DNA of 32,000 nt from Crocosphaera subtropica ATCC 51142 (GCF_000017845.1 NC_010546.1:3150001-3182000); one strand, 5' to 3'; positions 3,601 through 26,057 are shown, counted from the first letter of the stretch. Notes: generated by a model not told the origin, from the sequence alone. Numbers and translations: made by a program.

Positions 3601-6600
3601 TCCTGCTTTTAAAATCCCTAAAAGTACCACAATAAGTTGAGGAGAACGGTTTAAACACACACCGACGGGGGTTTCTGGTTTCACCCCTAACTGTTGTAAA
3701 TAATGAGCAAGTTGGTTCGCTTGGTGGTTGAGGTCCTGATAGGTTAATTCTTGAGTTTCATGGATAAGGGCGATCGCATCTGGCGTTCTTTTAACTTGTT
3801 CCTCAAACAGTTCATGTATCAACCCTTCAACTCTCTCCAGACTTTCCATACTTCCCACACTTCCCACCCCTAAGGGTAACTGCCACAGTTGCTGCTGAGG
3901 GTTAGCAATAATACCTGTAATTAAGGTTTGAAAATGTTGAGCTAGACGGCGAATTCTACTATCTTCAAAGAGATCAGTATTATACTCAAAAGTACCTATT
4001 AATCCCTCTGCTGTTTCTGTCATAAATAAGGTTAAATCAAACTTTGCCGTTGTACTTTCTGGTTTGACAGACTGTAAGGATAACCCAGGTAACTCCAGAG
4101 ACTGCATAGGAATATTTTGCAGCACAAACATCACTTGAAACAGGGAAGTATAACTTAAGTCTCGTTCAGGTTGTAATGCGTCAACTAACTGCTCAAAAGG
4201 AAGATCCTGATGACTATATGCGCCTAAAGTTGTTTCCCTTACCTGTTGTAATAATTGCACAAACGTCATTGTCCCTGACAAATGCGATCGCAAGGCCAAA
4301 GTATTCGCAAAAAAGCCAATTAACCCTTCAATTTCGCTACGATTACGGTTAGCAATGGGAGAACCGACAATAATATCCTCACTGTGAGTATAGCGATGTA
4401 ACAGCACATTAAACGCTGCTAACAACACCATGAATAAGGTGCTATTGTGTTGCTGACTTAACTGTTTTAACCCGTCAGACTGTTGTTGAGACAGTTGAAA
4501 TGTCAGCGTTTTCCCGTGAAAAGTTTGTACAGGAGGACGAGGGCGATCGCTTGGTATTTTTAGTAAGGTTGGGGCATTGTTTAACTGAGTTCTCCAGTAA
4601 GCGAGTTGCGTGTCTAAGGTTTCCCCTTGTAACCATTCTCGTTGCCATGCAGCAAAGTCTAAATACTGTATAGGCAGTTCAGGCAAAGGGGAGGGTTTTT
4701 GTTGGGAAAAGGCTTGATATAACGCTGCGACTTCCTGGATAAAAATGCCTACAGACCAAGCATCGGCTACACTATGATGGAGTACCAACAATAAAATATA
4801 GTCTTGTTCTGCTAACTGAAATAGTTTGACTCTTAATAAGGGAGTTTGAGCTAATTTAAAAGGCTGTTTTGCTTCCTTTACTGCTAATTTTTTGGCGGCT
4901 TCTTCTGAGTTTGGAGTATCTCGTAGATCAATAATAGGTAAGTTTAATGTGATAGTAGGGGAAATGATTAGTTGAGGTTTGCCGTCAACAGTTTTAATAC
5001 AACTCCGCAACACTTCATGGCGACCCACCACTTCATTAAGACTCTCTTGCAGCAGAGAAATATTCAGTTTACCTGTCAAACGAACTGCCCCAGGAATATT
5101 ATAAAAAGGACTATCAGGCTCTAATTGTGATAAAAACCATTGTCGCTGTTGAGCAAAAGATAAAGGTAACTCGCCATGACGATCTATTTTTTGAAATGAT
5201 AAAATCTCTTGCTTTCCTTCCCCATCAATAGCATTAGATAAACTTCTAATGGTTGGTTTTTCAAACAGTATTCTTAATGGTAACTCTCTTTCAAACACTT
5301 GGCGAACTTGAGACATCACCCGTGTCGCTAACAGAGAATGTCCCCCTAACTCAAAAAAGTTATCTTCCACACTCACTTGATTCAAATTGAGAATATTAGC
5401 CCAAATACCTGCTAAAATTTCCTCTGTTGCTGTTTTTGGTGCGATATAATCTTTATGATTTAATTCAATCTCTGGTAAAGCGTTACGATCAATTTTGCCA
5501 TTAGGGGTTAACGGTAAACTGTCTAACTCTATAAACCTTGACGGAATCATGTAACTGGGTAATTTTTCCGCTAAAAAGTCTTTTAGTGGGGGAGTATGGG
5601 TAGAGACAATATAAGCAATAAGACTTTCTTCTTTAACAATAACTACTGCTTCTTTTACTTGAGGATGAGTCAATAATATTGTTTCTATTTCTCCCAATTC
5701 TAGGCGAAATCCTCTTAATTTTAGCTGATAATCTGTTCTTCCTAAATATTCTATCTCTCCATCTTCCCCATACTTAACTAAGTCTCCTGTTTTATATAAA
5801 CGACTCCCTGCTTTTCCCCCCCTCTCAAGGGGGGTTGAGGGGATCGCCATAAATCTTTCTGCTGTTAATTTTGGTCTGTTTAAATAGCCTCTAGCTACTC
5901 CCATTCCTCCGATATATAATTCTCCTGGTACTCCTATAGGCACTTGATTATAGTCTTTATCTAACACATAAAATTGTGTGTTATTAATAGGTTTTCCTAA
6001 CCTAACTTTATCTGAAGTGACTTGATAAACTGATGACCAAATAGTGGTTTCAGTTGGGCCATATAAGTTCCAAACTGCTCTAGATTTTTGTTGCAGATGT
6101 TGCCCTAAACTGGGATCTAATGCTTCTCCCCCACAGAAAATCGTTAAATCTTTTTTTCCTTCCCACCCTGATGCGAGTAATAGTTTCCAAGTAGCAGGGG
6201 TTCCCTGCATGACGGTTACTTGATGGCTTTCTAACTGTTGCCCTAGGGTAACACCGTCTTGAGCAACAGTACGGGGAACTAAGACTAATTTTGCCCCAAC
6301 AATAAGGGGTAAATAGAGTTCTAAGGCAGCAATATCAAAGGATAGGGTTGTTACTGATAATAAAGTATCATCATCAGTTAATCCAGGTTTTTCACTCATC
6401 GAAACAAGAAAGTTACTTAACGCACGATGAGGTATTTGTACCCCTTTGGGAATACCTGTAGACCCTGATGTATAAATGATATACGCAAGATTGTCTAAGT
6501 TGATGTCTACATCGAGATTTGTCTTTTTTTCTTGATTAATTTCTCCTTGTACTTTATTAATATCAATCAAATATTTCACACTTTCCGAATTCCGAACTCC

Positions 6601-8418
6601 GCTGCGAAGCAGGACGAAGTCGCCCTCTGAACCCTTGATTAAATAATCAATTCCTGAATCTTTGATCATAAAATCGAGACGTTGTTCAGGATAGTTGGGG
6701 TCTAGGGGTAAATAGGCTCCTCCTGCTTTTAGAATGGCGAGTAAACTAATCACCATGTCTAAAGAAGGGTCTAAACATATCCCTACTAAGGTTTCTGGTT
6801 TGACTCCTAAACGTTGTAAATAATGAGCCAGTTGATTGGCTTTTTGATTTAATTGTTGATAGGTTAATGATTCATTGTTAAAAATAACAGCAATTTTATT
6901 CGGACTCTTCTTGACTTGTGTTTCAAATAGTTGATGTATGTAAATCTCCCTGCTCCCTGCTCCCTGCTCCCTTCTGCCTTGTATAAATAACTCTTTTTGT
7001 TCAGAGCTTGTTAATAAATTTAACTGGGAAATTTTTTCTTCAGGAGCATTTACTATTTCTTGTAATAGGGTTTTAAAATGTTTAATTAAACGCTTAATTG
7101 TTGTACCTTTAAATAAGCCAGTATTATATTCAAAAACACCTCTGAGTCCTGATGAAGTTTCATACATATCTAAGCTTAAATCAAATCGAGAGGTTTGATT
7201 TTCCCATGACAACGTATTTAAACTTAACCCTGGTAAGCGAACTTTTTCGCTAGGTGTATTATGAAGAATAAACATCACCTGAAACAGCGGGTTATGGCTT
7301 AAATTACGCTCTGGTTGTAAAACTTCAACTAAATATTCAAACGGTAAATCTTGATGTGCATAAGCCCCTAACGCCACCTCTTTTACTTGAGTTAAAAAAT
7401 CCCAAAAACTAATATTACTTGTAATCTCTGTACGAAAAACCAGATTATTAACAAATAACCCAATTAAATTTTCAATTTCAGTGCGGTTACGGTTAGCAAC
7501 GGTTGAACCCACTAAAATATCATCTTGTCCTGTATAACGATACAATAAAACTTTAAACGCTGCTAACAAAGTCATAAACAGCGTTGTCCCTGCTTGACGA
7601 GAAACTTTTTTTAATGTGTTAGACAGTTCAAGAGAGAGAAAAAACTCCTCAGTTGTGCCTTGAAAAGTTTGAATGGGGGGACGAGGAAAATCTGTGGGTA
7701 ATTGAAGAATGGGGGGATTATTCCGTAATTTTTCCCGCCAATATTCGAGTTGCTTGACTCTCGCTTCTCCTTGCAACCATTTTCGCTGCCAAACAGCAAA
7801 GTCTGCGTATTGAATGGGTAAACTAGGTAAGGGTGAGGGTTTTTGTTGAGAAAAGGCTTCATAAATAGCAGCTAATTCTTGAATCAGTACCCGCATTGAC
7901 CAATAATCAGCAATAATATGATGAACAGTAAAGATTAGGACATAATCTTCTTGATCTCGTTGAAAAATAATGCTTCTTAATAGGGGACTTTTTTCTAAAT
8001 TAAAGGATCGCAAGGCTTCAGTTTTAATATTGGTTTGTATTTCAATTTCTTGGTGTTCTTTTGATAATTCTTGTAAGTCAATCAAGGGAATATCTAAGGT
8101 TAGACTTTGTATTATTTTTTGTTTGGGTTCATCATCAAAACCGATAAAGATTGTCCGCAAAATTTCATGTCTTTGGACAATTTCATTTAAACTATTTTTT
8201 AGGGTGAGTAAGTTTAATTTTCCTTTTAATTCTAAAGCAACAGGAATATTATAAGCAGCGGTTCCAGGTTGTAAGCGATCTAAAAACCATAGACGAGCTT
8301 GAGCAAAAGATAAAGGAAATAGTTGTTTTTTTTGTTTCTTTTTTTGTTCTAGTTTTGCTAGTAGCTTTCGTTTTTGTTCTAAGGAAAGTTGATTGATTGC
8401 TGATTGCTTCTTGCCCAT
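637..8418 (-). CDS. non-ribosomal peptide synthetase, two modules: C-A(Gly-like)-T-C-A(Cys-like)-T-E
   Basis: 2593-aa ORF with ATG start. Motifs: C '[11 protein letters not shown]'/'HHIIADYWS'; A '[16 protein letters not shown]'; T '[10 protein letters not shown]'; second C '[11 protein letters not shown]'/'HHSVADAWS'; A '[16 protein letters not shown]'; T '[10 protein letters not shown]', the type that precedes E domains; E '[10 protein letters not shown]', 'EGHGRE'. Acidic C-terminal tail. No TE. Confidence 0.97.
   Translation of the reverse strand: [2593 protein letters not shown]
705..2050 (-). other. epimerization (E) domain, followed by a COM-donor-like acidic tail (about 640..704)
   Basis: '[10 protein letters not shown]', '[12 protein letters not shown]', 'ELEGHGRE', '[10 protein letters not shown]'. 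Tail '[24 protein letters not shown]'. Boundaries approximate. Confidence 0.85.
2090..2310 (-). other. T (PCP) domain, E-associated type
   Basis: '[16 protein letters not shown]'. The phosphopantetheine Ser codon is at 2194..2196. Confidence 0.85.
2345..3825 (-). other. A domain, hand-read specificity code DLFNNALTYK (Cys-like)
   Basis: '[10 protein letters not shown]', '[10 protein letters not shown]', 'INLAGEAL', '[14 protein letters not shown]', 'NGKVNR'. Positions assigned by alignment to the GrsA numbering from memory. Confidence 0.7.
2719..2757. repeat. G-run/GATC mini-element copy, in frame in an A domain (A6-A7 loop)
   Basis: 'ccccgcttactaaggggggttgaagggatcgg'. I translated it codon by codon as [13 protein letters not shown]. 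Confidence 0.75.
3851..3868. repeat. 9-bp tandem duplication in frame in a C-A linker
   Basis: 'cttcccaca cttcccacc' encodes the G-VGS-VGS segment of '[10 protein letters not shown]'. Confidence 0.7.
3880..5178 (-). other. C domain (LCL-type)
   Basis: '[13 protein letters not shown]', 'HHSVADAWS', '[12 protein letters not shown]'. Confidence 0.85.
5215..5440 (-). other. T (PCP) domain
   Basis: '[16 protein letters not shown]'. The Ser codon is at 5335..5337. Confidence 0.85.
5816..5848. repeat. G-run/GATC mini-element copy, in frame in an A domain (A6-A7 loop)
   Basis: 'ccccccctctcaaggggggttgaggggatcgcc' encodes [12 protein letters not shown]. Confidence 0.8.
6583..6634. repeat. heptamer-phase repeat (TTCCGAA x2 plus degenerate units), in frame between A2 and A3
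   Basis: 'ttccgaattccgaactccgctgcgaagcaggacgaagtcgccctctgaaccc' encodes [17 protein letters not shown]. Confidence 0.7.
6946..6978. repeat. CTCCCTG heptamer array, in frame in a C-A linker
   Basis: 'ctccctgctccctgctccctgctcccttctgcc' encodes [11 protein letters not shown]. Confidence 0.85.
7020..8322 (-). other. C domain (LCL-type), preceded by a Lys-rich N-terminal docking-like helix
   Basis: '[13 protein letters not shown]', 'HHIIADYWS'. N-terminus '[22 protein letters not shown]'. Confidence 0.85.
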
Positions 8419-8570
8419 TTTAATAAATATGATATTAACTTTTTTAAATGCTATAATTATGATGCTTTACTGAAACAGTCTCTCTTGACAGTAACGGGAT
8501 AGAAATCATAATACACTATAGACTTAAAATGCTAAGATATTGTCAAGTTGTTAATATAATGATTCCTAGG

Positions 8571-9155
8571 TTATTGAGGTTCATTAAAATCTACTCCTGC
8601 ATAAATATCTGACAACTGTAATTCAAAAGCGATCGCATTTAACTGTATTGTTAAATCTTCTCCTTCGTATTCCGATAACAACCATTTTTTATCTTCAGTT
8701 TTAGTGTATTGCATAATATGATATTGTTCCTGAGCAATCAAAATATATTCTTCTATTTCAGGAATGGAACGATAGTAAGTAAATTTATCGCCTTGGTCGT
8801 AATTTTGAGTCGATTTGGATAAGACTTCTGCAATTAAAATAGGATTGGTTACAGTCGTGGTTCCTTTATCAGCATAAATCGGTTTTCCTTTGATGACCAT
8901 AACATCGGGATAAGTATAGACGCGATGACGAGGTATCCAGAGACGCACATCTCCAATATAGACGCGATAATTTTGCTGTCTTAAACCAAATTTGAGGTTG
9001 GTATAACAATTTCCGGCAATTTCATTATGGTTGGTTGTTCCTCCTGTCATGGGGATGATTTCTCCATCGTGGTATTCGTTTTTGTATTCTGCTTGTTCTT
9101 CTAACTGTAAATATTCTTCTGGGGTATATTGACGATTTTGAGTTTGTAATTGCAT
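8571..9155 (-). CDS. Uma2-family (DUF820, PD-(D/E)XK-like putative restriction endonuclease fold) protein
   Basis: 194-aa ORF with ATG start. Typical Uma2 layout: 'YTPEEYLQLEEQAEYKNEYHDGEIIPMTGGTTNHNEI', 'YIGDVRLWIP', 'YPDVMVIKG', 'LIAEVLSKST', 'DKFTYYRSIPEIEEYILI'. Lies between two NRPS genes on the same strand. Confidence 0.8.
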   Translation of the reverse strand: MQLQTQNRQYTPEEYLQLEEQAEYKNEYHDGEIIPMTGGTTNHNEIAGNCYTNLKFGLRQQNYRVYIGDVRLWIPRHRVYTYPDVMVIKGKPIYADKGTTTVTNPILIAEVLSKSTQNYDQGDKFTYYRSIPEIEEYILIAQEQYHIMQYTKTEDKKWLLSEYEGEDLTIQLNAIAFELQLSDIYAGVDFNEPQ

Positions 9156-9354
9156 AACAAAAATAAGATTTTAGTTAATATATTTTACCTTAAAAAAAGA
9201 GTGATTACCATTTAACAAGGGTTGTCAACTGCAATTAAGCAAGGGAAAAGTCAGTAGCATTCAAATACTAGCATTAAATCCAAGCAGTTTGGCTAATTTA
9301 TCCTCTCTTGAACCAATGGAAGTATTAGGGTAAGTATTCATCTCTTGCTAGAGA

Positions 9355-12300
9355 TCAATCCAAAAGTTCGCTGTCATTTTCTTCTTCTCCTAACATTTTT
9401 ACTAACAAATCATCGATTTCTGCTTCGGATAATTCTTCCAAATTATTGATTTCTAGCATTTCCTCACGATCACACTGTTCAATGCGATCGCCGACTCCTT
9501 CAACGGCTTTATTTTCTTGAATTAATACCTCTAACTCTGCAATAGTTGGCGTTTCAAAGAGTTTTTGAATGGGTAATTCAACTTGGAAGGTTTGACGAAT
9601 TTTAGAAATGACTTGAGTTACTAATAAGGAGTTTCCCCCTAAATCAAAGAAGTTGTCATAAATTCCGACTTCTTCTATTTCTAAATATTTTTGCCAAATA
9701 GTTGCTAATTTTTCTTGTATTTTGGTTTGGGGCGGAACAAATTCGGTTAATACTGTTGTGTTTAAAATCTTAGGTTTAGGTAAGGCGTTACGGTCAATTT
9801 TTCCATTAGCAGTTAAGGGTAAAGTTTTCAAAATAGTGTAACTTTTTGGAATCATATAATCGGGTAGTTTTTGTTGTAAATATTGCTGTAATTTATCAGT
9901 AATAGATTCCATTTTCGTCTCAACTTTAGGCTGTGACCATTGTTTTGTCCAAGCTAAATCAATTTTTCCACCAACAAAACTGTGGAGTAAAATTTGACTC
10001 TCTTCCAACGCTAATAAATTTCGTAATGGTTCAAAGTCTAACGCACCAATGGGACATAACCCTAATTCTTGATCAGGTGCTGTTTCCATCAATAACTGAC
10101 TGATATATCCTGCTTCTAGTAAACACAAATCTCTTGCTTTTTCGCCGTATAAAGGTTGAATTGCATCTAACTCTCCCATTAAAAATAGGGAAAAGGCTGA
10201 TCCTTCATAAATCACCTGATTATTGCCATAAACTTCAGCATTAAATTCTATTTGAGAATTCAACAAAACTAAAGAATTTTCAAGGGGATGATAATAATAA
10301 AACCCTCCTTCTAATCCTGTTACTGTTTCCGATTTAATCAATAAATAAACCTGTACAGGATAGAGACTACCAGCCGATCCATAACGATATTTTGGTAAAG
10401 GAGAATCTTTTAATTGTATGGGACTTAAACTGCTTAAAAATTGTCCTAATTGTTGTAAAGAAATTGGTTCATTTAAAAACTGTCGATAACTTTGTCGCCG
10501 TAAATAAATCCCTTCATTAACATCAGTTTTCGGTAAAGAAATACGAGTTTGATAACTATTTAAACCCTTGACTCCAGGCTGCTTCAGCTTAAATTCCATC
10601 CTTTTGATAGGATCACGAATAACCCCTTCTTGTTCCTTAGGATCATAAGCATCAGGAACCCCAGAGGATTGATTTGGAACTATATAAGCTGCTAATTGCT
10701 GGTTTTCCCGTGAATTTCCCACTGCAGTTACCACTGCTTCTTTTATGGCAGGATGTTGCTCTAAAGCCGTTTCTATCTCCCCTAATTCTATGCGATAACC
10801 CCGAATTTTAACCTGATAGTCTTCTCGTCCTAAAAATTCGATATTACCATCGGGCAAATAACGACCTAAATCACCCGTTTTGTATAGCCTTTCTTGGGTT
10901 TGAGGATGAATAATAAAACTAGCATCAGTTTTCTCTTTATTTTGCCAATAACCTTCTGCTAATCCCTTGCCACCAATATACAACTGTCCCGTCACCCACA
11001 ACGGACAAGGGGTTAAAGACTCATGGAAAACGTAAAAATGCTGATTCGCCAACGGACGACCATAGGGAATACTCTTCCAACTGGGATCAACCCTGTCAAT
11101 AGGATAGAAAATTGACCAGATCGACGCTTCTGTTGCCCCTCCTAAACTGATCACCTGAGAAGCAGGAAAACGAGAACGGATGCGATCGCTTAAATTCAAG
11201 GGCAACCAATCCCCACTTAATAATACTACTCTTAAATCCTCGTTACTGGCCTCTGTTTCTAACAACATCTGCATCAAGGCAGGAACCGAGTTCCAAATCG
11301 TAATATTATGTTGACTCAATAACTCGTCCCAGTGGGAAGGATCTTGACGGCGATCGTGTTCTGGCATGACCAATGTTCCCCCTGCTGCCAGTATGCCAAA
11401 GATGTCATACACAGAAAGGTCAAAATTCAATGTAGAAAGGGCAATAACCTGATCTTTCGCTGAAATATCAAATTTTTGGTTAATATCGAGGATTGTATTA
11501 ACTGCCCCTTGATGGGCGATCGCCACTCCTTTAGGGACACCTGTGGAACCAGAGGTATAAATAACATAGGCCAGATCGTCAGGTTGCTGTATTGAGTCGA
11601 ATAGATCAAGTGTATTATTCGGTTCTAAGGTATCGATATCAATGCGTTCCAGGCTATCTTGAATTTCTACATCTAGCCAAGATTGGGTTAAAACCTGATT
11701 AACTTTAGTTTCTTCTAAGAGATAATAGCGACGTTCTAGCGGTAATTCGGGATCAATGGGAACATAAGCCCCACCAGCCGTTAAAATGCCCAAAGCCGCT
11801 ACAATTTGCTCCCATCCCTTTTCCATCATTACTGCCACTAACTGGTTAGATTGTACCCCTAATGTTCGTAGATGATGCGCTAAAGTTAAAATGCGATCGC
11901 TTAATTGTTGATAGGTTAAAGTTAATTGAGGGGCAATAACAGCGATTTTCTCAGGATTTTTGCTAACTTGCTCGAAAAATAGTTCATGAAGTAAACAATT
12001 TTCCTGTTTAAACGCTGTTTCAGTGTTATTAATCCCTGTAATTATCTTAATCTGTTCTGGGGGTAATAACTCAGGGGTTGGGGTTTCCCAAAGAGTTTCA
12101 TCCTTAGCCAATCTTTCCAATAAACCATGATACGCCCTAAACATATCATCCAGTAACCCCACAGGAAACAACTCCTCAATAGCATCCCAGTTAAATATTA
12201 ATTCCCCATCTATTTCTGACACCTGATGATCTAAGTAAACTTGAGACGTTTGACTGACACTGTAAACAACTTCTGCTTCCCACGTCCGAGAAGATGAAGG

Positions 12301-15300
12301 CTGCTGAGAAGTTTGTGTTAAGGTACTGGTAAACACCACAGGCATCAACGCTTCCCCTTTACCCCCTCGCAGACGAGATAACTCTCGTAAGACTTTCACC
12401 CCACTAACATGACGATGATCTAAATCTTCCCACAGTTGCCCTTGAATACGTCTTGCCCTGGTACTAAAAGCATCTTGTTCCTTATTATTCACTGTTAGAA
12501 GTAATGAAGAGGTAAAATCTCCAATCAGATGATTAATCTCAGGATGAATGGGTAAACGATTAAATAAAGTTAAATTTAAGGTAAATTCAGGGCTTTTACT
12601 CCAAGTGGTCAAAACTTCCGCAAAGGCTGCTAATAATAAACCCGACGGCGTGATACCCAACTGAGACGCTTTATCTTTTAATTTTTGCCAGTCATCAGTC
12701 TTTAGTTTGCCACTGCGACGCACAAAATGAGGTTGACTCACTGCCCCCAAACGCTTAGTTAAAGGGAGTTCAGGGGAAGGGGGTAACGTTGCTAAACGGT
12801 TTTGCCAATAAGACAGAGAACGCTGATAACCCTCCGAGTCTCGCCAAGCCTTTTCAGCTATTACATAATCTCGAAACGAAATACTTAAAGGCCATAAAGA
12901 AGTAACAGAATTCTGCAATATTTGAGCGAATTCCTGTCCTAAAATCTGAAAACTCCAAGCATCTCCAATCAATACCTCAAAACTTGCCATAAATCTCACT
13001 CTTTCCCCTGGTAAGAGAACCCCCTGAATCTCAAATAAGGGAAAGCGATCCGTGGGAAACATTTGATGAGAAAGGCGATCGCGCAATTTTTCTAACTCAG
13101 TCGCAACAGTTTCCTTACTCTCCTCTCGTAAGTCTAGGGTTTTAATCTTGTAGGGTGGCACTTCAGGCAAAACCCTTTGTTGTCCCTCTTCATCCACAAC
13201 CACTCGCAACATATCATGACGTTGGATCAACATTTGAAATGCCTCTTCAACCTGTTGAACCGTCAACCCGACTGTTTCAATCTCTCGATAACCATGAGTG
13301 GCCACATTACCCAACTCAAAGGCGGCACTGCGTCCAATGAGATAAGCTTGTTGAATGTCTGTTAAAGGAAAAGGCTCATCCCGTTCATGCGGTTTCGCCA
13401 CTAGGGTCGGTAAATTGGCTGATTCTAGCTTAATTTCCTTTTTTTCTGAAATTTTCGCCTCTAAACCTGCCACTGTTGGCTGTTCAAACAAACTGCGTAA
13501 GGGAACCTTCACCCCCAACCTTTCACTAATTTCTGCAATAACATTGATTCCTAAAAGAGAATGACCGCCCAACTCAAAAAAGTTATCATGAATACCAATT
13601 TTGTCAACTTTTAAAGCATTTTGCCAAATTTCCGCAATAGTTCTTTCAGTTTCCGTCTGAGGTTCTACATAGTCATTGTCTAAGCTACGTCCCAACGTCT
13701 CAGGCATAGGTAGAGACTTGCGATCTAACTTTCCATTCGGCAAACGAGGTAAGGCAGGTAACTCAATAAAGGTTGTGGGGATAGCATATTGCGGTAACTT
13801 TCCTACCAAAAAGTGGCGTAAGTTTTTGGGAGAGGCAGGCGATCCCCCCTTAGTAAGGGGGGGTAGGGGGGGATCAGTAACAAGATAAGCAACTAAACGT
13901 TGATTATTAGACTCCTTCTGCCAAACCATCACAGCATTTTCAACCATCCCTGGATGTTCACTCAATGCTGCTTCAATTTCTCCTAGTTCCAGGCGATAAC
14001 CCCGTACTTTAACCTGATTATCCCGTCTTCCCAAAAATTCTAAATTCCCCTGACCATCATACCGTACCAGATCCCCCGTTTTATACAATCTTACTCCCTG
14101 CTCCCTGCTCCTTTGTCCCTGCTTCTTCCCAACAAAAGGGTTCGGCATAAATCGTTGCGCCGTTAAAGGCGATCGCCCTAAATAACCCCGTGCGATTCCT
14201 GCCCCACTAAGATACAATTCTCCTGTAACCCCTTGAGGCACTAAGTTCAAGTAACGATCTAAAATGTATGTTTGAGTGTTACTAATGCCTTTCCCTATCG
14301 TTACCACACCCTCAGCATTACTTTTCACAGGGGTATAAGTCGAATAGGTCGTATCTTCCGAAGGGCCGTAAAGATTAAAAATAGATTGAATATGGCTCAA
14401 TTTCTCCAATTCCTCTACCAAACGATGGGAAAGAGCTTCCCCCGCTAAATTAATCCCTTTTACTGATATAGGAATCCCCTTGATCCGTAATAATTGAGCG
14501 ATCGCACTGGGAACCGTATTAATTAAAGTAATTTCTTCTCTGGCTGCTAAATTGGGCAAATCTAAGATATTTTCTGCTAAAATTACCTGATATCCCCAAC
14601 ATAAAGGCACAAATAACTCAAAAACCGATAAATCAAAACAAATAGACGTAGAAGCCAACACCCCTTGTAACAGTTCAGGGGAAAAAGTCTTTCTCGCCCA
14701 GTCTAATAATGCAACCGTGTTACGATGGGCAATGGCTACCCCTTTGGGACGACCTGTCGATCCAGAAGTATAGATAACATAGGCTAAATTGTCGGGATGC
14801 AAATTATTTGGGGGATTTTCTTTACTTTCTTGTGCAATTTTTGCACAATCTTTTTCTAAATCAATCCCATCACGTCCCAATAAGACTGATATCTGGGAAT
14901 CTTTGATAATAAAATCGATACGATCTTGAGGATAAGCAGGATCAAGGGGAATATAAGCCCCACCCGCCTTAAGAACCGCCAATAAGCCAATCACCATTTG
15001 GGGCGATCGCTCAACACAGATCCCTACTTTAACCTCTGGCCTGACCCCTAATTTTTGCAAATAATGGGCTAATTGATTCGCTTTTGTATTTAGCTCTTGA
15101 TAAGTTAATATTTCCTTTCCAAACCTTAACGCAACAGCGTCAGGAGTCCGTTTAACTTGTTCCTCGAATAACTGAGGAATGTTTGCAGTGTTTGGATAAT
15201 CTTGTGTTGTTGATGTACCCATCATCAGCAGTGTTTCTTGTTCTACTGTTGATAATAAAGGTAGCTCAGACAGTCTTTGTTTAGGGTTGGCCACAATGCC

Positions 15301-16752
15301 TTCTAAAAGCACTTGAAAATGTTCTGCCATCCGTGCAATAGTAGCCTCTTCAAATAAATCCGTACTGTATTCAATTTGCCCATTAATCCCCTCATTGGTA
15401 TCTTGAAGATTAAGGCGTAATTCATACTTAACCGTTTCTTGCTCCCCTGACAACCGTTCCAAACTTAGATCCGATAGTTCCAAAGGCTTCACCGTAGCCA
15501 GTTGAAAGTCAAATTTTACCTGAAATAAAGGCATTATCTGACTGAGATGGCGATCAGGGTTCAATACTTCTACTAACTTCTCAAAAGGCAAATCTTGATG
15601 AGCATAAGCTCCCAGTGTCACTTCTCTTACCCGTTGCAACACCGTCTGAAACGTAGGATTTCCTGATAAATCAGTGCGTAATACTAAAGTATTCACCAAA
15701 AGACCGATTAACCCTTCCATTTCACGGCGATCGCGGTTCGCTATTTCCGTTCCGATCACAATATCATCTTGCTCAGTATAGCGACAGAGCAGCACTTTAA
15801 AGGCACTCAGCAGCAACGTAAACAGCGTCACCCGTTCCTTCGCACTGAGAGCTTTGAGGGCATTACTCAGGGCAGGAGAAAGGGCAATGGGATAAGGTTT
15901 GCCTTTATATGAAGGAACCAGAGGACGTGATCGCTTGGTGGGAAGGTCTAAAATAGGTAAATCTTGGCCCAGTTTTTGCTGCCAATAATTAATCTGTTTT
16001 TCTAACACCTCCCCTTGTAACCATTGACGCTGCCAAATTGACCAGTCACCATATTGAATCGGTAATGAGGGTAAATAGAAAGCCTTTTCCGTGTCTTTTC
16101 CCCTCTTTCCAAGGGGGGGTAGGGGGGGATCGCCTCCTGCCTCCTTCAAAAACCCATTATAAAGCGTGGTCATTTCCCGTAAGAAAATACCAATTGACCA
16201 GCGATCGCAGACAATATGATGGGTGGCAATTAATAAAATATGCTCTGTTTCAGACCGTTTGAGTAAGATTAAGCGTAATAAAGATTCACTCAGATTAAAA
16301 GGACGCAAGGACTCTGTTCTCACAATACGCTGAATTTCTGTTTCTGCATCAGCAATGCCTTGTAAATCAACCATAGGCAACGAAAACGGCTCAAACGCCT
16401 TAACCACTTGAATCGGTTGGCGATCGCTATCGGTGGTAAAGGTTGTCCTTAGCATTTCGTGGCGTTTCACGATCTCGTTGAGAGTTCGCTCTAATATCTC
16501 AACTTCTAGCTTTCCCCTGAGACGAAAGGCACTGGGAACATTATAGGAATTATTCTCAGGTTCTAACTGTTGAATAAACCAGAGTCGCTGTTGAGCAAAA
16601 GAAAGGGGAATAACGGCTGATGACTGCCGTTTGCCAATCATTTGAGTCTGAAAAGAGGGATGCTTAATATTTTTTTCTTTCAGTCGCTTTTCCAATAGAG
16701 CGCGTTGTTCTGGAGAAAGATTTGCAATTAGTTGGGAAAGGTCTTGATTCAT
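9355..16752 (-). CDS. non-ribosomal peptide synthetase: C-A(Cys-like)-T-Cy-A(Cys-like, with embedded Ox domain)-T
   Basis: 2465-aa ORF with ATG start. Motifs: C '[11 protein letters not shown]'/'HHIVCDRWS'; A '[16 protein letters not shown]'; T '[10 protein letters not shown]'; Cy '[14 protein letters not shown]'; A '[16 protein letters not shown]'; nitroreductase-like insert '[14 protein letters not shown]' between A8 and A9; T '[10 protein letters not shown]'. Acidic C-terminal tail. Confidence 0.97.
   Translation of the reverse strand: [2465 protein letters not shown]
9520..9745 (-). other. T (PCP) domain
   Basis: '[16 protein letters not shown]'. Confidence 0.85.
9780..12010 (-). other. 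A domain, hand-read code DLYNLSLIWK (Cys), interrupted by an Ox domain
   Basis: '[10 protein letters not shown]', '[10 protein letters not shown]', 'LLSGDWL', '[13 protein letters not shown]'. A8 '[12 protein letters not shown]' lies at about 10770-10800, A9 'LPDYMIP' at about 9849-9869, and A10 'NGKIDR' at about 9783-9810. Confidence 0.8.
9960..10625 (-). other. FMN-dependent oxidase (Ox, nitroreductase-like) domain embedded between A8 and A9
   Basis: About 220 aa inserted between 'AAYIVPNQ' and 'LPDYMIP'. Contains 'RRQSYRQF', '[17 protein letters not shown]', 'GFYYYHP', '[11 protein letters not shown]', 'LGLCPIG'. Same placement as the embedded oxidase domains of thiazole-forming NRPSs such as EpoB. 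Confidence 0.8.
12070..13390 (-). other. heterocyclization (Cy) domain
   Basis: '[16 protein letters not shown]', '[13 protein letters not shown]'. The active-site region reads '[10 protein letters not shown]' in place of the usual DxxxxD. Confidence 0.85.
13450..13672 (-). other. T (PCP) domain
   Basis: '[16 protein letters not shown]'. Confidence 0.85.
13828..13875. repeat. G-run/GATC mini-element, full palindromic form, in frame between A8 and A9
   Basis: 'gggagaggcaggcgatccccccttagtaagggggggtagggggggatc' encodes [16 protein letters not shown]. The termini GATCCCCCC...GGGGGGATC are inverted repeats. Confidence 0.8.
14094..14130. repeat. CTCCCTG heptamer array, in frame in an A domain (A6-A7 loop)
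   Basis: 'ctccctgctccctgctcctttgtccctgcttcttccc' encodes [12 protein letters not shown]. Confidence 0.8.
15290..16615 (-). other. C domain (LCL-type), preceded by an N-terminal docking-like helix
   Basis: '[13 protein letters not shown]', 'HHIVCDRWS'. N-terminus '[16 protein letters not shown]'. Confidence 0.85.
16101..16144. repeat. G-run/GATC mini-element plus TCCTGCC heptamers, in frame in a C domain
   Basis: 'ccctctttccaagggggggtagggggggatcgcctcctgcctcc' encodes [16 protein letters not shown]. Confidence 0.8.
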
Positions 16753-16796
16753 ATGTGAGAAATGTATAGAAAGTAAATGATAAATAATCGTTTAAG

Positions 16797-16827
16797 TTCT
16801 CGGCTAAAATCTTCTCGGCCAAAAATC
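16797..16827. repeat. tandem 15/16-bp direct repeat in the PKS-NRPS intergenic spacer
   Basis: 'ttctcggctaaaatc' followed by 'ttctcggccaaaaatc', 45-75 nt upstream of the NRPS start at 16752. Confidence 0.6.
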
Positions 16828-16896
16828 CTGGTTAAGCCCTTGCATTATTATGAACCTACCGATGGAAGATTGCAACAATAAGTATAGAAGACTATA

Positions 16897-19800
16897 TTAT
16901 TCCTCGTTCAATTGAGCTTTAATCTCTTCAGAAGAAAGGCTTTGAATTTCAGCCAATACCTCACTTAATGCTTCTAAATCCTCAGTTTCTTCTTTATTTT
17001 GCTCAATAATAGCTGTAATACCAGCAATGGTTGGGGCTTCATACAGCAGACTCCCCATCGATAACTCCACTTGAAACGTCTCTTTAAGGCGAGAAAGGGC
17101 TTGAATGGCTAAGAGAGAATGCCCTCCTAGGTCAAAAAAGTTGTCATTGACTCCAATGGGTTGAATACCAAGAATTTCTTGCCAAATATTGGCGATCGCA
17201 TTTTCAATCTCATTGCGTGGGGCAACATATTCATTGGCTAAATTAGGTCTTTGGTGTTGAGCAGCGTTTTGATTAACCTCTGTGGACGTTTCTTCTGTTG
17301 TTTTAGGGGATAATTTAACTTGAGTGCTTCCCTTGAGTCGGGCGTGAAGATCCCCTTTAGAAACAATGATTTGAGAGGACAAACCAGAGGCTAAAATACG
17401 TTCTATGACGGCTGTAACTTCTTGGGGAGTTAGGGCAAAGGGAATTAAACTGCTTCCTAACCCCATAGCCTTCTGTTTATCTTCTTCTGATAGACAAGCA
17501 TCCCAGTTGACACTGATCCAAGGAGTTTGACTGATTTGATTTTGCTGATGGACAAAGGCATCTAGAAAACGATTAGCTGCACTATAGGCCCCTAACCCTA
17601 ATCCCCCTAACACCGCAGACAAGGATGATTGTACTAATACAAAATCGAGCTTTTTATCCTGCAAACTGACGGCCAAAGGATAAAGTCCTTGAGCTTTGGT
17701 TTGAAAATTATACTCACCGTGAGAGCGTTCTAAGAGTTGAATGGGAGCAGCAGAGAGAGGGCTACTCATAGGGGTGGCGTAGAATACTCCATGAAGCTTA
17801 TCAACTTGCCCCATAATCTCGTTTAAGTTGGTTTCGGGACTAAAAACTAAACAGGTTGCGCCTTTGGCTTCTAAGGCTTGAATTTGATGAATTTGCTGAA
17901 AAATGGTTTCTTGTGTTTCTTTATTTGTTAAAATTTTATCCCATTCTTCCCGTTTCGGTAATTTTTCCTGACTCACTAAGAGAATGGTTGTGTCTCCTGT
18001 TGCGGCTACTTGTTGAGCAAATATTCCCCCCAAACTGCTGACTAACTCTCCTAAAATCAGGTAATTTCCGCCTTTTCGCAGTTGAATTTTTTTTGTTTTC
18101 GGTTCTTTCAAGGACATCCGTTTAAAGGTTTGATGCCAACGATAAGCACCTCGATAAGCCACAATTAACTCTTTTTGAGGATCAAGAAATTCAGTTAAAA
18201 GGCGATCTCCTGCCTCCTGCCCCCTGATTGCTTCAATATCAATATTACGACAAGAAACTTGAGGATATTCTTGATTAATCACCTGACATAATCCCACAAC
18301 GGGCATTTTTTCAGGGATTAATTCTTCCTGTCCTACCACATCATACAATCCTTGAGTGACCACAAAAACTTCTTGGCACAAGGGGATAAGGGTTTGTCCT
18401 AACCACAATAAGCTATAAAATCCTTGTTCTTGATAGGCTGTCAATTCTTTGTTTTCTGTTTCAATGTTCCATAAATGAACAATAAAATTAGGTATTAACT
18501 GTCTTAACTTTAAATCTTCTGCTAAAGCTTGATAATCTTCCCGTTTATTAGGATTAATAGTAAAACAACGGTAGTCTGGTTCTGCAAACTCCTGTCCTGG
18601 AGTTACCGTCAACACCTCTTGCCCTGCTTTGGTTAAGCTATCAGTAATATTGGCTCCGATCCCTTGAGAATCGAGGAAAATCAACCAACACGCTCGGGTT
18701 TCCCTTAAAGATTCCCAATCAATGTCTAAAGAGGCTATATCTCGCTCCCAGGAAGGCACATAAAACCAATCTTCCAGGTCTTGATAAATGGCGATCGCCT
18801 CTTCTTTGGGGTCTTCAAATTGAGCCTCGATCCAGTACCGCTTACGTTCAAAGGGATAAGTGGGTAACGGCACACGGTAACGGCGTTCATCGCCATAAAA
18901 CCCAGACCAGTTAATTTCAACCCCTGCTTGCCAAAGTTTGCCTAAAGTGTTGAGAATGAAAGCAATATCAGACTGTTCCTCTTTCGGATGACGCAAAGAA
19001 GTTAAAATCACCTGCTCACTATTCAACCCAAGCTGTTGCTGTGTCAGGGTACTTAAGGTTTTGCCCGGCCCAACTTCTAAGAAAATGCGTTGCGGTTCTT
19101 TAGCTAATTCAGCAATACCCTCTGCAAAGCGAACAGTTCGCCGTAGATGGTTTACCCAATAAAGAGGATCAGTAGCTTCTGTATCCTTAATCCAGGTTCC
19201 CGAAACATTAGAGATAAAGGGGATTTGGGGATAATGTAAAGAAATGCGGCTAATTTCCCCCTCAAATTCCTTTAAAATGGGTTCCATTATCGCTGAATGG
19301 AAAGCGTGGGAAGTATGAAGAGGACGACAAGCAATATTTTGACTTTCTAGATCCTTTTGTAATTGTGCGATCGCAGTTTCTGTTCCTGAAACCACACATA
19401 ACTGAGGGGCATTTACGACAGCCAAACTGAGATCCTCCCCCAAATAGGGTTGAATCTCTGCTTCTCCCAAGGCAACGGATAACATTTTCCCAGAATCGCA
19501 CTTCTGCATTAACTTACCACGAACAGCGACGATTTTTAGGGCATTTTCTAACGAAAACACCTTAGCTAAAGTTGCTGCCACATATTCCCCAATACTATGA
19601 CCCATCATCACATCAGGTTCAATGCCCCAACTCATCCACAGTTTCGCTAAGGCATATTCAATGATAAATAAAGCAGGTTGAGCATAGATTGTTGAGCGTA
19701 GATTATAAGAATTTTCTAGTGTTGCCTGTTGACTTCCCCCCTTAGTATTAGTAAGGGGAGGCAGGGGGAGATCGCCTACTCCCTGCTCTTCAAAAATAAT

Positions 19801-21609
19801 CCCCCGTAAATCCCATCCTAAACTTGATTGAAGCAAGTCACAACAGCGATCGACTTCTTGTTTAAAAATGGGTTCAGTCTCATAAAGTTCTTTCCCCATC
19901 CCTACATATTGGCTGCCTTGGCCTGAAAATAGAAACGTCACGGGACGATGAGAGGAACTTGCTGAAGAATGAGTTAAAAAAGAAGATTCTAGCTGCTTTA
20001 TGGCATTTTTGTGATCCTGACAAACAATAAAACCACGATACTCAAAATCTCTCCGTCCCACTTGCAAAGTGTAAGCTACATCCCCTAAATTAAGCTCTGG
20101 ATGTTCTTTTAAATGGTTTACCAGATTTTCCCTTGCCTTTTCTAAAGCTGTCGCAGTTTTCGCTGACAACGGTAATAAATAACTTTTGCCTCCTGCTTGC
20201 CCCCCTTGGCTGATCCCCCTCCTGTCCCCCTTGGAAAAGGGGAAGCCGAAGGATGCTTCGCTTTTGTTTGGTCTGGGGTTGGGGGGATCGCCTTCTGCTT
20301 CTTCCAAAGGGGACTCCTCTAAAACAACATGAACATTAGTCCCTCCAATGCCAAAGGAACTAACCCCTGCCCGTCTCGGTATGCCGTTGCTTTGCCACTT
20401 TGACAAGGTCGTATTAACGTAAAAAGGGCTATTCGTAAAATCAATTTGAGGGTTGGGCTGTTTAAAATGTAAACTGGGCGGAATTTGTCTATTTTTTAGG
20501 GCTAACGTAGTTTTAATTAAACTGGCTATTCCCGCAGCCGTATCTAAATGTCCAATATTCGTTTTCACCGATCCCAAAGCACAAAACCCCGTTTTATCAG
20601 TGCCAACCCGAAACGCTTGGGTTAAGGCAGCAATTTCAATGGGATCGCCTAGTGCAGTTCCTGTGCCGTGTGCTTCAATATAGGAAATGCTCTCAGGTTC
20701 AACTTCTGCTAAATGTTGCGCTGCTTTAATCACTTGGGTTTGACTATCCAGGGAAGGGGCAGTATAACTGACTTTTTGCGCCCCATCGTTATTAATGGCT
20801 GATCCTTTAATCACAGCAAGAATATTATCTCCTTCGGTTAAAGCATCTTCTAGTCGTTTCAGTACCACTAAACCAACCCCGTTACCACTGACCGTCCCTT
20901 TGGCATCAGCATCAAAGGCACGACAATGACCATCTGGAGAATAAATACCGCCCTCTTGATAGAGATAGCCCATCTGCTGAGAAATGGCAACCCCACCGGC
21001 TAAGGCCATGTCGCATTCTCCACTGAGTAAGCTTTGACAAGCTAAGTGAACAGCCACTAAAGAGGTAGAACAAGCGGTTTGAACATTGACGCTCGGGCCA
21101 TCGAGATTTAATTTATAAGATACCCGTGTTGTCAAGAAGTCTTTATCACTGGCAATAAATAATTGATAAGGATCTAAATTATTGTTGTTTTTAGACTGAC
21201 TGTAAACATTGAAGAGATAACCATTCATACCTGCGCCCCCAAATACACCGATCGCCCCTTCATATTTTTGGGAGTCATATCCTGCATTTTCTAAAGCTTC
21301 CCAGGCACATTCTAAAAAAAGACGGTGTTGCGGGTCGATAATTTCGGCTTCTCTAGCATTGAAACCAAAGAATTCAGCATCAAACTGGTCTACGTCTTCC
21401 AATTTAGCTGCTGCTTTGACATAATTCGATTTTTTCAATAATGCTTCATTAACACCCTGTTTCAGTAAATCTTCATCGCTGTAAACAGTAATTGACTCTC
21501 TCCCTTGGGATAAGTTCTGCCAAAAGGCTTCGATGGTGTTAGCCCCAGGAAAACGCCCTGCTATGCCGATAATTGCGATTTCTAAGCCATTATTGAGTAA
21601 ATCAGTCAT
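16897..21609 (-). CDS. type I polyketide synthase module: KS-AT(malonyl-type)-KR-like-carrier (PCP-type motif)
   Basis: The ORF track starts at a TTG (21618). An ATG at 21609 gives '[22 protein letters not shown]'. Motifs: KS '[11 protein letters not shown]', '[14 protein letters not shown]', '[10 protein letters not shown]'; AT '[10 protein letters not shown]', 'GHSIGE', 'HAFH'; KR-like '[19 protein letters not shown]'; carrier '[10 protein letters not shown]'. Confidence 0.96.
   Translation of the reverse strand: [1570 protein letters not shown]
17020..17230 (-). other. carrier domain with a PCP-type (GGHSL) rather than ACP-type (GxDSL) core
   Basis: '[45 protein letters not shown]'. Confidence 0.8.
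17345..18775 (-). other. ketoreductase-like region (structural plus catalytic subdomains) with a non-canonical nucleotide-binding motif
   Basis: 'DWFYVPSWE' start. '[16 protein letters not shown]' stands where GTYLITGGLGGLG is expected. '[19 protein letters not shown]' retains Ser/Tyr/Asn. 'SVNWD' end. Confidence 0.6.
18201..18226. repeat. GATC plus TCCTGCC heptamers, in frame in the KR-like region
   Basis: 'ggcgatctcctgcctcctgccccctg' encodes RGQEAGDR. Confidence 0.7.
18950..19945 (-). other. acyltransferase domain, malonyl-CoA type
   Basis: '[14 protein letters not shown]', '[10 protein letters not shown]', 'HTSHAFHS' (HAFH motif). Confidence 0.85.
19736..19788. repeat. G-run/GATC mini-element plus CTCCCTG heptamer, in frame in an AT domain
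   Basis: 'ccccccttagtattagtaaggggaggcagggggagatcgcctactccctgctc' encodes [18 protein letters not shown]. Confidence 0.8.
20188..20297. repeat. about 110-bp composite MITE-like element, in frame in the KS-AT linker
   Basis: Bounded by 'gatccccc' (20212-20219) and 'ggggggatcgcc' (20281-20292). Internal hairpins 'cccccttggaaaagggg' and 'gaagccgaaggatgcttc'. Encodes [35 protein letters not shown]. Confidence 0.7.
20315..21580 (-). other. ketosynthase domain
   Basis: The active-site Cys codon is at 21070..21072 in 'QTACSTSL'. His motifs 'EAHGTGT' and 'NIGHLD'. Confidence 0.9.
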
Positions 21610-21622
21610 TTTCTTCAAAATT

Positions 21623-24600
21623 TCAAGATTTCTTATTTTTCTGGAGACGTTGTTTTAACCGTTGTTTTCCTGCCGTTAGGCGATTGCTTCTTTGCTCTGA
21701 TGCTTCAAAAACAGGGTTTTTAGACTTCTGGCGTTCAAAATAGGTTGATAAAGCCCTAATGGTTGGATATTGAAACATCTCAACCAGGGAAATGTCGGAT
21801 GAAAAGGCTTCTCGTACTTTACTGTGTACCCGAACCATTGACAAAGAATGGCCACCAAGGTCAAAGAAGGGATCATGAACCCCTATTGTCTCAACTTTTA
21901 GCACTTCTTGCCAAATTTTAGCAATAGTTTTTTCAATTTCGCTGCGAGGACTAACATAGGTTTCGTTTAACGGTTGTCGCTCTTTTGACTCTGGTAAAGC
22001 GTTACGATCAATTTTGCCATTAGGGGTTAACGGTAAACTGTCTAACTCTATAAACCTTGACGGAATCATGTAACTGGGTAATTTTTCCGCTAAAAAGTCT
22101 TTTAGTGGGGGAGTATGGGTAGAGACAATATAAGCAATAAGACTTTCTTCTTTGACAATAACTACTGCTTCTTTTACTTGAGGATGGGTCAATAATATTG
22201 TTTCTATTTCTCCCAATTCTAGGCGAAATCCTCTTAATTTTAGCTGATAATCTGTTCTTCCTAAATATTCTATCTCTCCATCTTCCCCATACTTAACTAA
22301 GTCTCCTGTTTTATATAAACGACTCCCTGCTTTTCCCCCCCTCTCAAGGGGGGTTGGGGGGATCGCCATAAATCTTTCTGCTGTTAATTTTGGTCTGTTT
22401 AAATAGCCTCTAGCTACTCCCATTCCTCCGATATATAATTCTCCTGGTACTCCTATAGGCACTTGATTATAGTCTTTATCTAACACATAAAATTGTGTGT
22501 TATTAATAGGTTTTCCTAACCTAACTTTATCTGAAGTGACTTGATAAACTGATGACCAAATAGTGGTTTCAGTTGGGCCATATAAGTTCCAAACTGTTCT
22601 AGATTTTTGTTGCAGATGTTGCCCTAAACTGGGATCTAATGCTTCTCCCCCACAGAAAATCGTTAAATCTTTTTTTCCTTCCCACCCTGATGCGAGTAAT
22701 AGTTTCCAAGTAGCAGGGGTTCCCTGCATGACGGTTACTTGATGGCTTTCTAACTGTTGCCCTAGGGTAACACCGTCTTGAGCAACAGTACGGGGAACTA
22801 AGACTAATTTTGCCCCAACAATAAGGGGTAAATAGAGTTCTAAGGCAGCAATATCAAAGGATAGGGTTGTTACTGATAATAAAGTATCATCATCAGTTAA
22901 TCCAGGTTTTTCACTCATCGAAACAAGAAAGTTACTTAACGCACGATGAGGTATTTGTACCCCTTTGGGAATACCTGTAGACCCTGATGTATAAATGATA
23001 TACGCAAGATTGTCTAAGTTGATGTCTACATCGAGATTTGTCTTTTTTTCTTGATTAATTTCTCCTTGTACTTTATTAATATCAATCAAATATTTCACAC
23101 TTTCCGAATTCCGAACTCCGCTGCGAAGCACGACGAAGTCGCCCTCTGAACCCTTGATTAAATAATCAATTCCTGAATCTTTGATCATAAAATCGAGACG
23201 TTGTTCAGGATAGTTGGGGTCTAGGGGTAAATAGGCTCCTCCTGCTTTTAAAATAGCGAGTAAACTAATCACCATGTCTAAAGAAGGGTCTAAACATATC
23301 CCTACTAAGGTTTCTGGTTTGACTCCTAAACGTTGTAAATAATGAGCCAGTTGATTGGCTTTTTGATTTAATTGTTGATAGGTTAATGATTCATTGTTAA
23401 AAATAACAGCAATTTTATTCGGACTCTTCTTGACTTGTGTTTCAAATAGTTGATGTATGTAAATCTCCCTGCTCCCTGCTCCCTGCTCCCTTCTGCCTTG
23501 TATAAATAACTCTTTTTGTTCAGAGCTTGTTAATAAAGAAATTTGGCACAATTGTTGTTTAATATCTTTAGAAATACTGGTTAATACAGTTTCTAAATGT
23601 CCCAACAAGCGGTTGATACTGCTAGACGAAAAGCGATCGCTATCATATAAAATTCTTAGGGATAACTGTGACGTGACAGCAGCGTAAAGCGTTAAAGGAT
23701 AATTGGTTTGTTCAGTAGTGTTAATATTATCAATTTCTAACCCTTGTAATGACTGTTTTAAGGTCGATTCAACGGGATAATTCTCAAAAATTACTAAACT
23801 TTCAAATAAGGGAAAATGACCAGGAACCTCACTGCCGCGGTGAATGTCTAATAGGGGACTATATTCATATTGCTGTTGTTCAATTTGCTGAGTTTGTAGC
23901 TGTTTTAGCCAAGAAATAAGCGATTCTTGGGGATTTACCTTAACTCGTACTGGCAAGGTATTGATAAATAAGCCAATCATCGATTCTGCGTCCCTTAAAT
24001 CTGGCGGACGACCTGATACCGTTGCTCCAAAAACAATATCTGATTCTCCACTATAGCGACTCAATAATAAGGAAAATGCCCCTTGCACCAGTGTATTTAA
24101 AGTTAGTTGCTGCTGTTTGGCTAATAATTGCAAGGCTGTGGTAAGTTCTAAAGACAGTTGTTTCTCTTGTTCATCATATCGAGAAGGAGCCTTACGAAAG
24201 CTTTCCCGTGATTGTCCAATACCTAATGGAGTCGGTGCAATAAAACCTTTGAGAGTTGTTTTCCAAAATTTTTCAGCCTTTGACCCGTCTTGTTTTTGCA
24301 GCCATGCAATATAGTCCCGATAAGGGGGAGGTGTATCTAAATTGATGATTTTTTTAAAACAAAATCCTTGATAATAAGTCAAAAATTCTTTGAAAAGACA
24401 ACTGACTGACCAACCGTCCAGCAAAAGATGATGATACGTCCAAATAACTTGATAATAATCTATTCCCAATTTAATCAGCGTTACCCGCATTAACGGAGCG
24501 TGAGAAAGCTTAAATCCTTGTTGACGTTGCTGTTGTAATAATTCTGTTAATTTTTCGGACTGTTGAGTAATAGAAAGGGTTTCCCAGTTTAGTTGTTCAA

Positions 24601-26030: not shown

Positions 26031-26057
26031 GTTCCTCCTAATCACATCATCTCGCCA

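Follow-up and report, generated by a model that had tools for sequence, protein, structure and literature searches.

The question raised by this locus is how two otherwise unrelated nonribosomal peptide synthetase (NRPS) genes came to carry an almost identical internal segment. The window analysed was a stretch of 32,000 nucleotides (nt) from Crocosphaera subtropica ATCC 51142 (NC_010546.1:3150001-3182000), in which all the large genes of the cluster stretch 637-24913 lie on the minus strand. The two genes were labelled 'term' (637-8418) and 'single' (21623-24913), and the segment common to them, here called the cassette, covers a condensation-adenylation (C-A) linker and a complete adenylation (A) domain. 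It occupies 5470-7018 in 'term' (copy 't') and 21989-23537 in 'single' (copy 's'), on the minus strand in both cases. No paper on this cluster or on its A-domain repeat was found. The explanation favoured, at a probability of roughly 0.8, is concerted evolution of the two A domains through recurrent gene conversion within the genome, bounded by an old A-domain junction.

Direct comparison at a constant offset of 16519 showed that the two copies are 99.55% identical over 1549 nt, with no indels. The seven mismatches (5635, 5668, 5838, 6078, 6612, 6732 and 6736) were scattered along the repeat and of mixed polarity; four were synonymous and three non-synonymous (L603V, A781T and S861P), and the reading frame was intact in both copies. 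A match of this kind cannot arise by chance. A multiple alignment misplaced a few codons near amino acids (aa) 930-936 of the ATCC 51142 copies, where the direct comparison showed no indel. Outside the repeat, identity in 60-nt windows at the same offset dropped straight away to 0.2-0.6. At the protein level the cassette runs from 'LLTSSEQKELF' to 'NGKIDRNALPE', and the host flanks belong to different paralogues. The N-terminal C domain of 'term' (7019-8418, minus strand) was of the LCL type, with 79-81% aa identity to its own orthologues and 28% to the C domain of 'single' (23538-24913, minus strand), which was of the DCL type. The thiolation (T) domains that follow copy 't' (5227-5415, minus strand) and copy 's' (21740-21928, minus strand) were about 41% identical. 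A first-pass annotation of the same DNA, made without database searches, had listed the seven differences at about 99.5% identity with no indels, the two boundary motifs, and distinct C and T paralogues; all of these were confirmed, and the low identity of the C and T domains speaks against duplication of a whole module.

In 'term' the cassette corresponds to aa 467-983 and in 'single' to aa 459-975; it takes in Acore, Asub and motifs A1-A10, and the two copies are 7 nt (3 aa) apart. When crystallised constructs were aligned to 'single', C-domain constructs ended at residue 454-465 and A-domain constructs at 974-976; what is exchanged is thus the C-A linker together with the entire A domain, and the edges of this unit coincide with structural domain limits. 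Core motifs A3-A10 were present in the A domain. The specificity code, read against GrsA-PheA, was DILQFGLIWK in both copies, in agreement with the earlier reading of a Gly-like code. The canonical Gly code in Stachelhaus-type tables is DILQLGLIWK. The code in ATCC 51142 and in Crocosphaera watsonii matched it at 9 of 10 positions, and both copies examined in Crocosphaera sp. Alani8 had DILQLGLIWK (10 of 10). Both modules are predicted to be active and specific for Gly.

Each host gene had orthologues at 75-78% identity in Alani8 (P0003 and P0127, in contigs L080 and L082) and in C. watsonii (P0002 and P0123, in L081, L083 and L084). The C. watsonii cluster members name strains WH 8501, 8502, 0003, 0005, 0401 and 0402, and both genes co-occur in the same strains. 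The cassette was found at both positions in both of these lineages, and the junction codons were the same in all three (before 'LLT' and after 'ALPE'). Amino acid identity in the C domain was 76-81% between orthologues and 27-29% between paralogues, and the corresponding values for the T domain were 78-90% and 34-50%. For the A cassette, aa identity was 75-81% between lineages, and the two copies of one genome matched at 99.2% in ATCC 51142, 93.7% in Alani8 and 79.7% in C. watsonii. A scan of a genome collection with the cassette missed the 75%-identical Alani8 copies and was used only as a sample of distant A domains. A megablast search of plasmids with the cassette gave no match.

At the nucleotide level the cassette copies were 99.4, 95.5 and 85.3% identical within the genomes of ATCC 51142, Alani8 and C. 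watsonii, respectively, against 77-81% between lineages. Conserved residues were encoded by identical codons in 99, 95 and 79% of cases within genomes and in 58-67% between lineages, and the synonymous divergence (dS) was 0.007, 0.072 and 0.414 within genomes as against 0.80-1.05 between lineages. The excess identity within genomes thus sits at synonymous sites and is not due to selection on the protein; the ratio of non-synonymous to synonymous divergence (dN/dS) of the cassette between lineages, 0.13-0.17, was the same as in the C and T domains. Neighbour-joining trees of the C and T domains split by position with 100% bootstrap each, whereas the A-domain tree consisted of three genome pairs, supported at 100, 100 and 100%. 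The Alani8 pair contained a run of 757 nt without any difference in a cassette otherwise 4.5% diverged (permutation p=0.0005), a nested tract that corresponds to aa 647-906, from about A3 to just past A8. The C. watsonii pair had shorter, patchy identical runs (permutation p=0.0085), and the same run test gave no significant identical runs in orthologue pairs.

Phylogenetic and synonymous-site signatures, common junctions and nested tracts were thus all observed, and together they argue for recurrent conversion and not for a single recent replacement. The first-pass annotation had left both mechanisms open. Its gene conversion limited to the A domain was the right one, but a recent swap that installed a different A domain did not hold, since C. 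watsonii and Alani8 carry the cassette, the junction codons and a Gly-type code at both positions; that reading is also undercut by the A-domain sharing in the Lyngbya/Limnoraphis version of the cluster described below. The 99.5% identity is therefore the latest homogenisation of an old paralogous pair, and no change of specificity is implied. The annotation had further proposed a comparison of orthologous clusters to see which position ancestrally carried a different A domain; no cluster with a different A domain at either position was found. As for a replacement that changes specificity or brings in a foreign donor, every lineage examined had the cassette and a Gly-type code at both positions.

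The proposed sequence of events is as follows. An old recombination would have placed the same A domain behind unrelated LCL- and DCL-type C domains and before unrelated T domains, leaving a 1.5-kb island of homology with cliff-like edges. Since then, non-allelic homologous recombination (gene conversion, presumably RecA-dependent) has in all likelihood overwritten one copy by the other repeatedly and independently in each lineage; the A domains have thus changed together, and the adjoining C and T domains have diverged in the manner of normal orthologues. Tracts could start anywhere inside the island but would have to end within it or stall at heterology, and the absence of homology past the junctions presumably explains why identity breaks off within a codon of either end. 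The molecular route may be double-strand-break repair, or heteroduplex extension that stalls at heterology. In ATCC 51142 the last homogenisation is very recent on this reading (dS 0.007), and the seven differences are later point mutations in either copy.

The same arrangement was recognised further afield. In Lyngbya aestuarii BL J (L001), the C-terminus of an orthologue of 'mid', the NRPS gene that lies between the two cassette copies in ATCC 51142, was followed by a 2620-aa gene collinear with 'term', with identities of 64% (C1), 56% (A1), 60% (T1), 62% (C2), 63% (A2) and 54% for the epimerization (E) domain. Limnoraphis robusta (L085) and a related metagenome contig (L086) carried orthologues of 'single', the polyketide synthase (PKS) gene and 'mid' in the same order. 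Between the Lyngbya A domain at the 'term' position and the A domains at the 'single' position of L085 and L086, identity was 84-89% in nt and 74-97% in aa in windows, with flanking C domains at about 30% and T domains at 42-55% and junctions in the same places. These A domains were about 55% identical in aa to the Crocosphaera cassette, and in the A-domain tree they formed a 100% clade apart from a 100% Crocosphaera clade. The sharing of an A domain between the two positions is either as old as the split of the two cluster versions or has been re-created repeatedly.

A first outgroup test had suggested that the cassette was native to 'single'; this was not borne out by a less biased sample, by the tree or by the collinear Lyngbya orthologue. 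The nearest outside A domains were 53-58% identical and were found behind both types of C domain.

Alani8 carries a third copy of the cassette, in module 1 of a C-A-T-C-A-T-E gene (L082, 2289-9923) directly upstream of its 'term' orthologue. This copy was 97% identical in aa to the 'term' copy, with a common block that runs through the T domain, and had only the A domain in common with the 'single' copy. The ends of the block differ between pairs of Alani8 copies, and different exchange units therefore coexist. Such an extra C-A-T-C-A-T-E gene, with a first C domain of the 'single' (DCL-like) type, is carried by Alani8 and by Limnoraphis (L085 and L086, 2155-9948), and the ATCC 51142 window has none. 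In Alani8 its A-T block was 92-100% identical in nt to that of the 'term' orthologue, and the gene looks like a recombinant between the two types of host gene.

Several observations weigh against recurrent conversion or limit how far it can be taken. For C. watsonii, 's' and 't' were taken from separate metagenome assemblies of a single species, although cultured strains do carry both genes together; the Lyngbya/Limnoraphis comparison joins related organisms and does not lie within one genome, and all cassette copies are known from assembled sequence. Within the cassette, 182 sites grouped by genome, five by position and two in the opposite way, so that relics of position are not informative; for ancestral presence at both positions, the argument is accordingly one of identical junction codons and parsimony, not of direct phylogenetic signal. 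In ATCC 51142, lineage-specific codons were common to both copies to within about 9 nt of the upstream junction. Homogenisation this near the junction exceeds simple tract models, which suggests that several overlapping events, or heteroduplex extension to the edge of heterology, would be needed. Variation among C. watsonii strains was considered as a sign of ongoing conversion and was uninformative, being concentrated in a proline-rich insert and in truncated gene models. Across the three Crocosphaera, as far as three points go, homogenisation is stronger the closer the copies lie: 99.5% for copies 16.5 kb apart, 95.5% for copies on separate contigs (Alani8) and 85% for separate loci with unrelated neighbours (C. 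watsonii).

A rival explanation is that, in each lineage separately, the original and unrelated A domain of one module was replaced by a copy of that of the other module, with the breakpoints alike every time through microhomology in conserved motifs (LLT..., ...NGKIDRxALP) or because no others leave a working enzyme. With the relics of position missing, the tree alone cannot separate such replacements from concerted evolution, the junctions do fall on widely conserved NRPS motifs and at structural domain limits, and mcyB1 A domains are known to have been replaced independently by unrelated donors (Fewer et al.). This account is nevertheless improbable: illegitimate recombination would have had to strike identical codons of one and the same module pair four times or more. 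Once two copies are in place, conversion by homology should occur much more often, and its trace is directly seen in the 757-nt tract of Alani8. No lineage was found with a different A domain at either position, the specificity code was of the Gly type everywhere, and the identity between paralogues in C. watsonii and Alani8 was graded and patchy.

The dependence on assembled sequence gives some room to an artefact in the ATCC 51142 record, in which more divergent A domains were made chimeric or mixed in the consensus. A 1.5-kb repeat is longer than Sanger or 454 reads, and an exact look-up of the 2593-aa protein in a contig index gave no independent assembly of the strain. Against this, the seven differences are scattered, three of them non-synonymous, with both frames intact; the two host proteins are 100% matches to proteins of C. 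subtropica ATCC 51142, whose record is a single 4.93-Mb chromosome, and the 'single' protein sequence occurs in two Crocosphaera UniRef entries. Independent assemblies of three other lineages also show the cassette at both positions with graded identity, so that the arrangement itself is real and close identity within a genome is the norm. An artefact is considered very unlikely. Two further readings, in which a whole module was duplicated and its C and T parts diverged later, or two domains that activate Gly converged under purifying selection, can be set aside almost entirely. Both modules do share the Gly-type code, and A-domain pairs of 82-97% occur within unrelated clusters too, but one C domain is DCL and the other LCL in subtype, at 28% identity and with dS saturated against 0.007 in the cassette; the trees of the flanks speak against these readings too, and selection at the protein level cannot give 99% identical codons at synonymous sites. 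Recurrent conversion between two old copies thus remains the preferred explanation.

A further proposal goes beyond recurrent conversion. The LLT...ALPE unit may be a long-lived common part, kept identical at two positions (three in Alani8) ever since the split of the Crocosphaera and Lyngbya/Limnoraphis versions, which are about 45% divergent in protein, with a persistence that is not neutral: either selection for identical Gly-loading domains at positions i and i+2 or recombination promoted by the embedded short repeats. This is a tentative and rather doubtful proposal. If true, the junctions would delimit an exchange unit validated by evolution, against the reported natural preference for Acore-only exchange, and one that works behind both DCL- and LCL-type C domains and before T domains that feed either a C or a ketosynthase (KS) domain.

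Within-locus A-domain pairs of 82-97% aa identity were seen elsewhere, in Tolypothrix carrinoi, Archangium minus, Rivularia sp. and an unclassified cyanobacterial metagenome-assembled genome (L002, 5365 and 13169; L069, 3674 and 6839; L010, 10001 and 13175; L007, 562 and 8254).

The order in which the host proteins act bears on where the two Gly residues would be placed. The 'term' protein (2593 aa; GenBank ACB52418) has the organisation C(LCL)-A(Gly)-T-C-A(Ala code)-T-E. Its C-terminal domain (640-2151, minus strand) is an epimerization domain and neither a condensation nor a release domain, with better matches to the E domains of GrsA (5isw, 9e-96) and TycA (2xhg, 7e-85) than to a C domain (2jgp, 2e-13). 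No thioesterase or reductase was present in 'term' and none was visible in the window. The 'single' gene, a 1096-aa open reading frame (GenBank ACB52423, with the RefSeq start 18 aa later), encodes C(DCL)-A(Gly)-T. The best PDB match of its C domain was McyB1 (444 bits), followed by the post-E C domain of PvdL, SrfA-C and TycB1, as against 118 bits for the LCL-type domain of TycC. As 'term' ends in an E domain and 'single' opens with a DCL-type C domain, 'term' probably acts before 'single', and the order of action would then differ from the gene order. The earlier label 'terminal NRPS' is right as to position only. The domain content points to 'term', 'single', PKS, 'mid' as the likely order, in which case Gly would enter at positions i and i+2 through the two cassettes. 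The backbone predicted for this order is Gly-D-Ala-Gly-ketide-Ala-thiazole. From the T domain behind copy 's' the chain would pass to the downstream PKS. Of the remaining codes, those of module 2 of 'term' and module 1 of 'mid' read Ala, and that of module 2 of 'mid', which has heterocyclization (Cy) and oxidase domains, reads Cys.

Between the two cassette copies lie 'mid' (9355-16752, minus strand; 2465 aa), organised as C-A(Ala code)-T-Cy-A(Cys code, with an inserted oxidase)-T, and the PKS gene (16897-21618, minus strand; 1573 aa), organised as KS-AT-KR-ACP. One further pair of A domains, in module 2 of 'term' (2951-3250) and module 1 of 'mid' (14339-14638), has the same code, DLFNNALTYK (Ala), at only about 69% nt identity; this is an ordinary diverged pair of paralogues and provides an internal contrast to the cassette. 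A gene of the Uma2 family (putative endonuclease, of the restriction-endonuclease-like kind; 8571-9155, minus strand) is inserted between 'mid' and 'term'. It had no homologue in any related locus examined, and 'mid' and 'term' abut in L. aestuarii. Divergent from 'single', a gene for a FAAL-acyl-CoA dehydrogenase-ACP protein occupies 26016-29843 on the plus strand, and a 73% orthologue of it adjoins 'single' in C. watsonii. In that species the FAAL/'single'/PKS locus (L081) and the 'term' locus (L083/L084) have unrelated neighbours, with no 'mid' adjacent; the thiazole-forming 'mid' (Cy-A-Ox) was present in ATCC 51142 and in Limnoraphis/Lyngbya.

Three repeat inserts had been described within the cassette, common to both copies, and this account was borne out in part. 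One is a heptamer array, (CTCCCTG)x3.9, perfect and in frame in the C-A linker, where it encodes GRREQGAGSRE, at 6946-6972 in copy 't' and at 23465-23491 in copy 's'. Another is a (TTCCGAA)x2.7 patch inside a segment 7 aa longer than in the orthologues, and the third is a degenerate member of a GC-rich palindromic repeat family (CCCCCCCTCTCAAGGGGGGTTGAGGGGATCGCC; 5815-5848 with its twin at 22334-22367), in frame between A6 and A7 and encoding PSTPLERGG. The last element was missing or shorter in the Alani8 and C. watsonii orthologues. The presence of all three inserts in both copies was confirmed.

Related repeats were seen elsewhere in the cluster. (CTCCCTG)n also occurs in 'mid' (14094-14123), and at the same site of the C-A linker the C. 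watsonii 'term' orthologue (L083) has (ACTGGGAG)x3, so that the linker appears to be a hotspot of repeat expansion in which length is kept to a multiple of three. The core of the palindromic family, AAGGGGGGGTAGGGGGGGATC, was found at 13855-13875, 16111-16131, 19753-19773 and 31690-31710, that is, four matches in the window at three mismatches or fewer against none expected. Members lie in frame within NRPS and PKS coding sequence, with GGDPPLPPLGKRG encoded in the first C domain of 'mid', and the family looks like a small dispersed element that is tolerated in surface loops. The 'single' copies of C. watsonii alone (P0002, P0241, P0244 and P0246) had a hypervariable proline-rich insert of variable length between A9 and A10, at which several draft gene models were truncated.

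Natural recombination boundaries are the main guide for the re-engineering of peptide synthetases, and clean cases are few. The unit described here, an entire A domain plus its C-A linker, is delimited to the codon, stands beside two classes of C domain and two downstream partners and is under selection as strong as that on its flanks (dN/dS about 0.15); at least four lineages have re-homogenised it independently. A-domain phylogenies in this cluster family track the genome and not the position, and inference of orthology or specificity from A domains is therefore misleading. A direct repeat of 1.5 kb, 99.5% identical and 16.5 kb apart, also lends itself to deletions by which the two genes would be fused.

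The closest known system is microcystin synthetase, and the analogy drawn to it by the first-pass annotation was apt. The A domains of mcyB1 and mcyC intermix positions and are near-identical within strains, while the C domains group by position, and the tracts span A1-A10, with nested A3-A8 tracts, a pattern that recurs across genera (Fewer et al. 2007, PMC2174460). Recombination of mcy A domains was also described by Tooming-Klunderud et al. 2008 (PMC2564945). Common to both systems is a cyanobacterial NRPS-PKS cluster in which recombination within the genome homogenises the A domains of two modules and leaves out the C domain. The mcy events differ in that they change or blur substrate choice (LR/RR), have foreign donors in some cases and run on halfway through the T domain. 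In the present cluster all copies have a Gly-type code with no change of chemotype implied, the outer boundary falls on one and the same codon, five residues past A10, whatever the lineage, and the host genes lie in separate loci in C. watsonii and on separate contigs in Alani8. The process is thus one already described for microcystin synthetase and no new mechanism; what is new is a codon-precise unit in an orphan cluster.

Natural NRPS exchange mostly concerns Acore, with the native C-A linker and Asub kept (Baunach et al. 2021, PMC8097286). The present case agrees with that report in being intragenomic, between modules of one cluster and with a mosaic signature in sliding windows, and the nested Alani8 tract resembles its Acore-centred unit. 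Unlike an Acore swap, the unit here takes in nearly the whole C-A linker and Asub, so that both interfaces travel along. GRINS-driven gene conversion between modules was reportedly found in modular PKS genes by Nivina et al. in 2021. No GRINS-like skew was detected in or beside the cassette, where the absolute GC skew in 200-nt windows was at most 0.36, like the rest of the cluster.

Bacterial multigene families such as rRNA operons and tuf genes are described as evolving in concert by conversion (Santoyo and Romero 2005, as cited in PMC9205934). The cassette resembles these families in three respects: the paralogues of one genome are closer to each other than to their orthologues in other genomes, homogenisation extends to synonymous sites, and tracts do not go beyond the block of homology. 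In those families a whole gene or operon evolves in concert, and here it is an internal domain common to two megasynthetase genes that are unrelated in their other parts.

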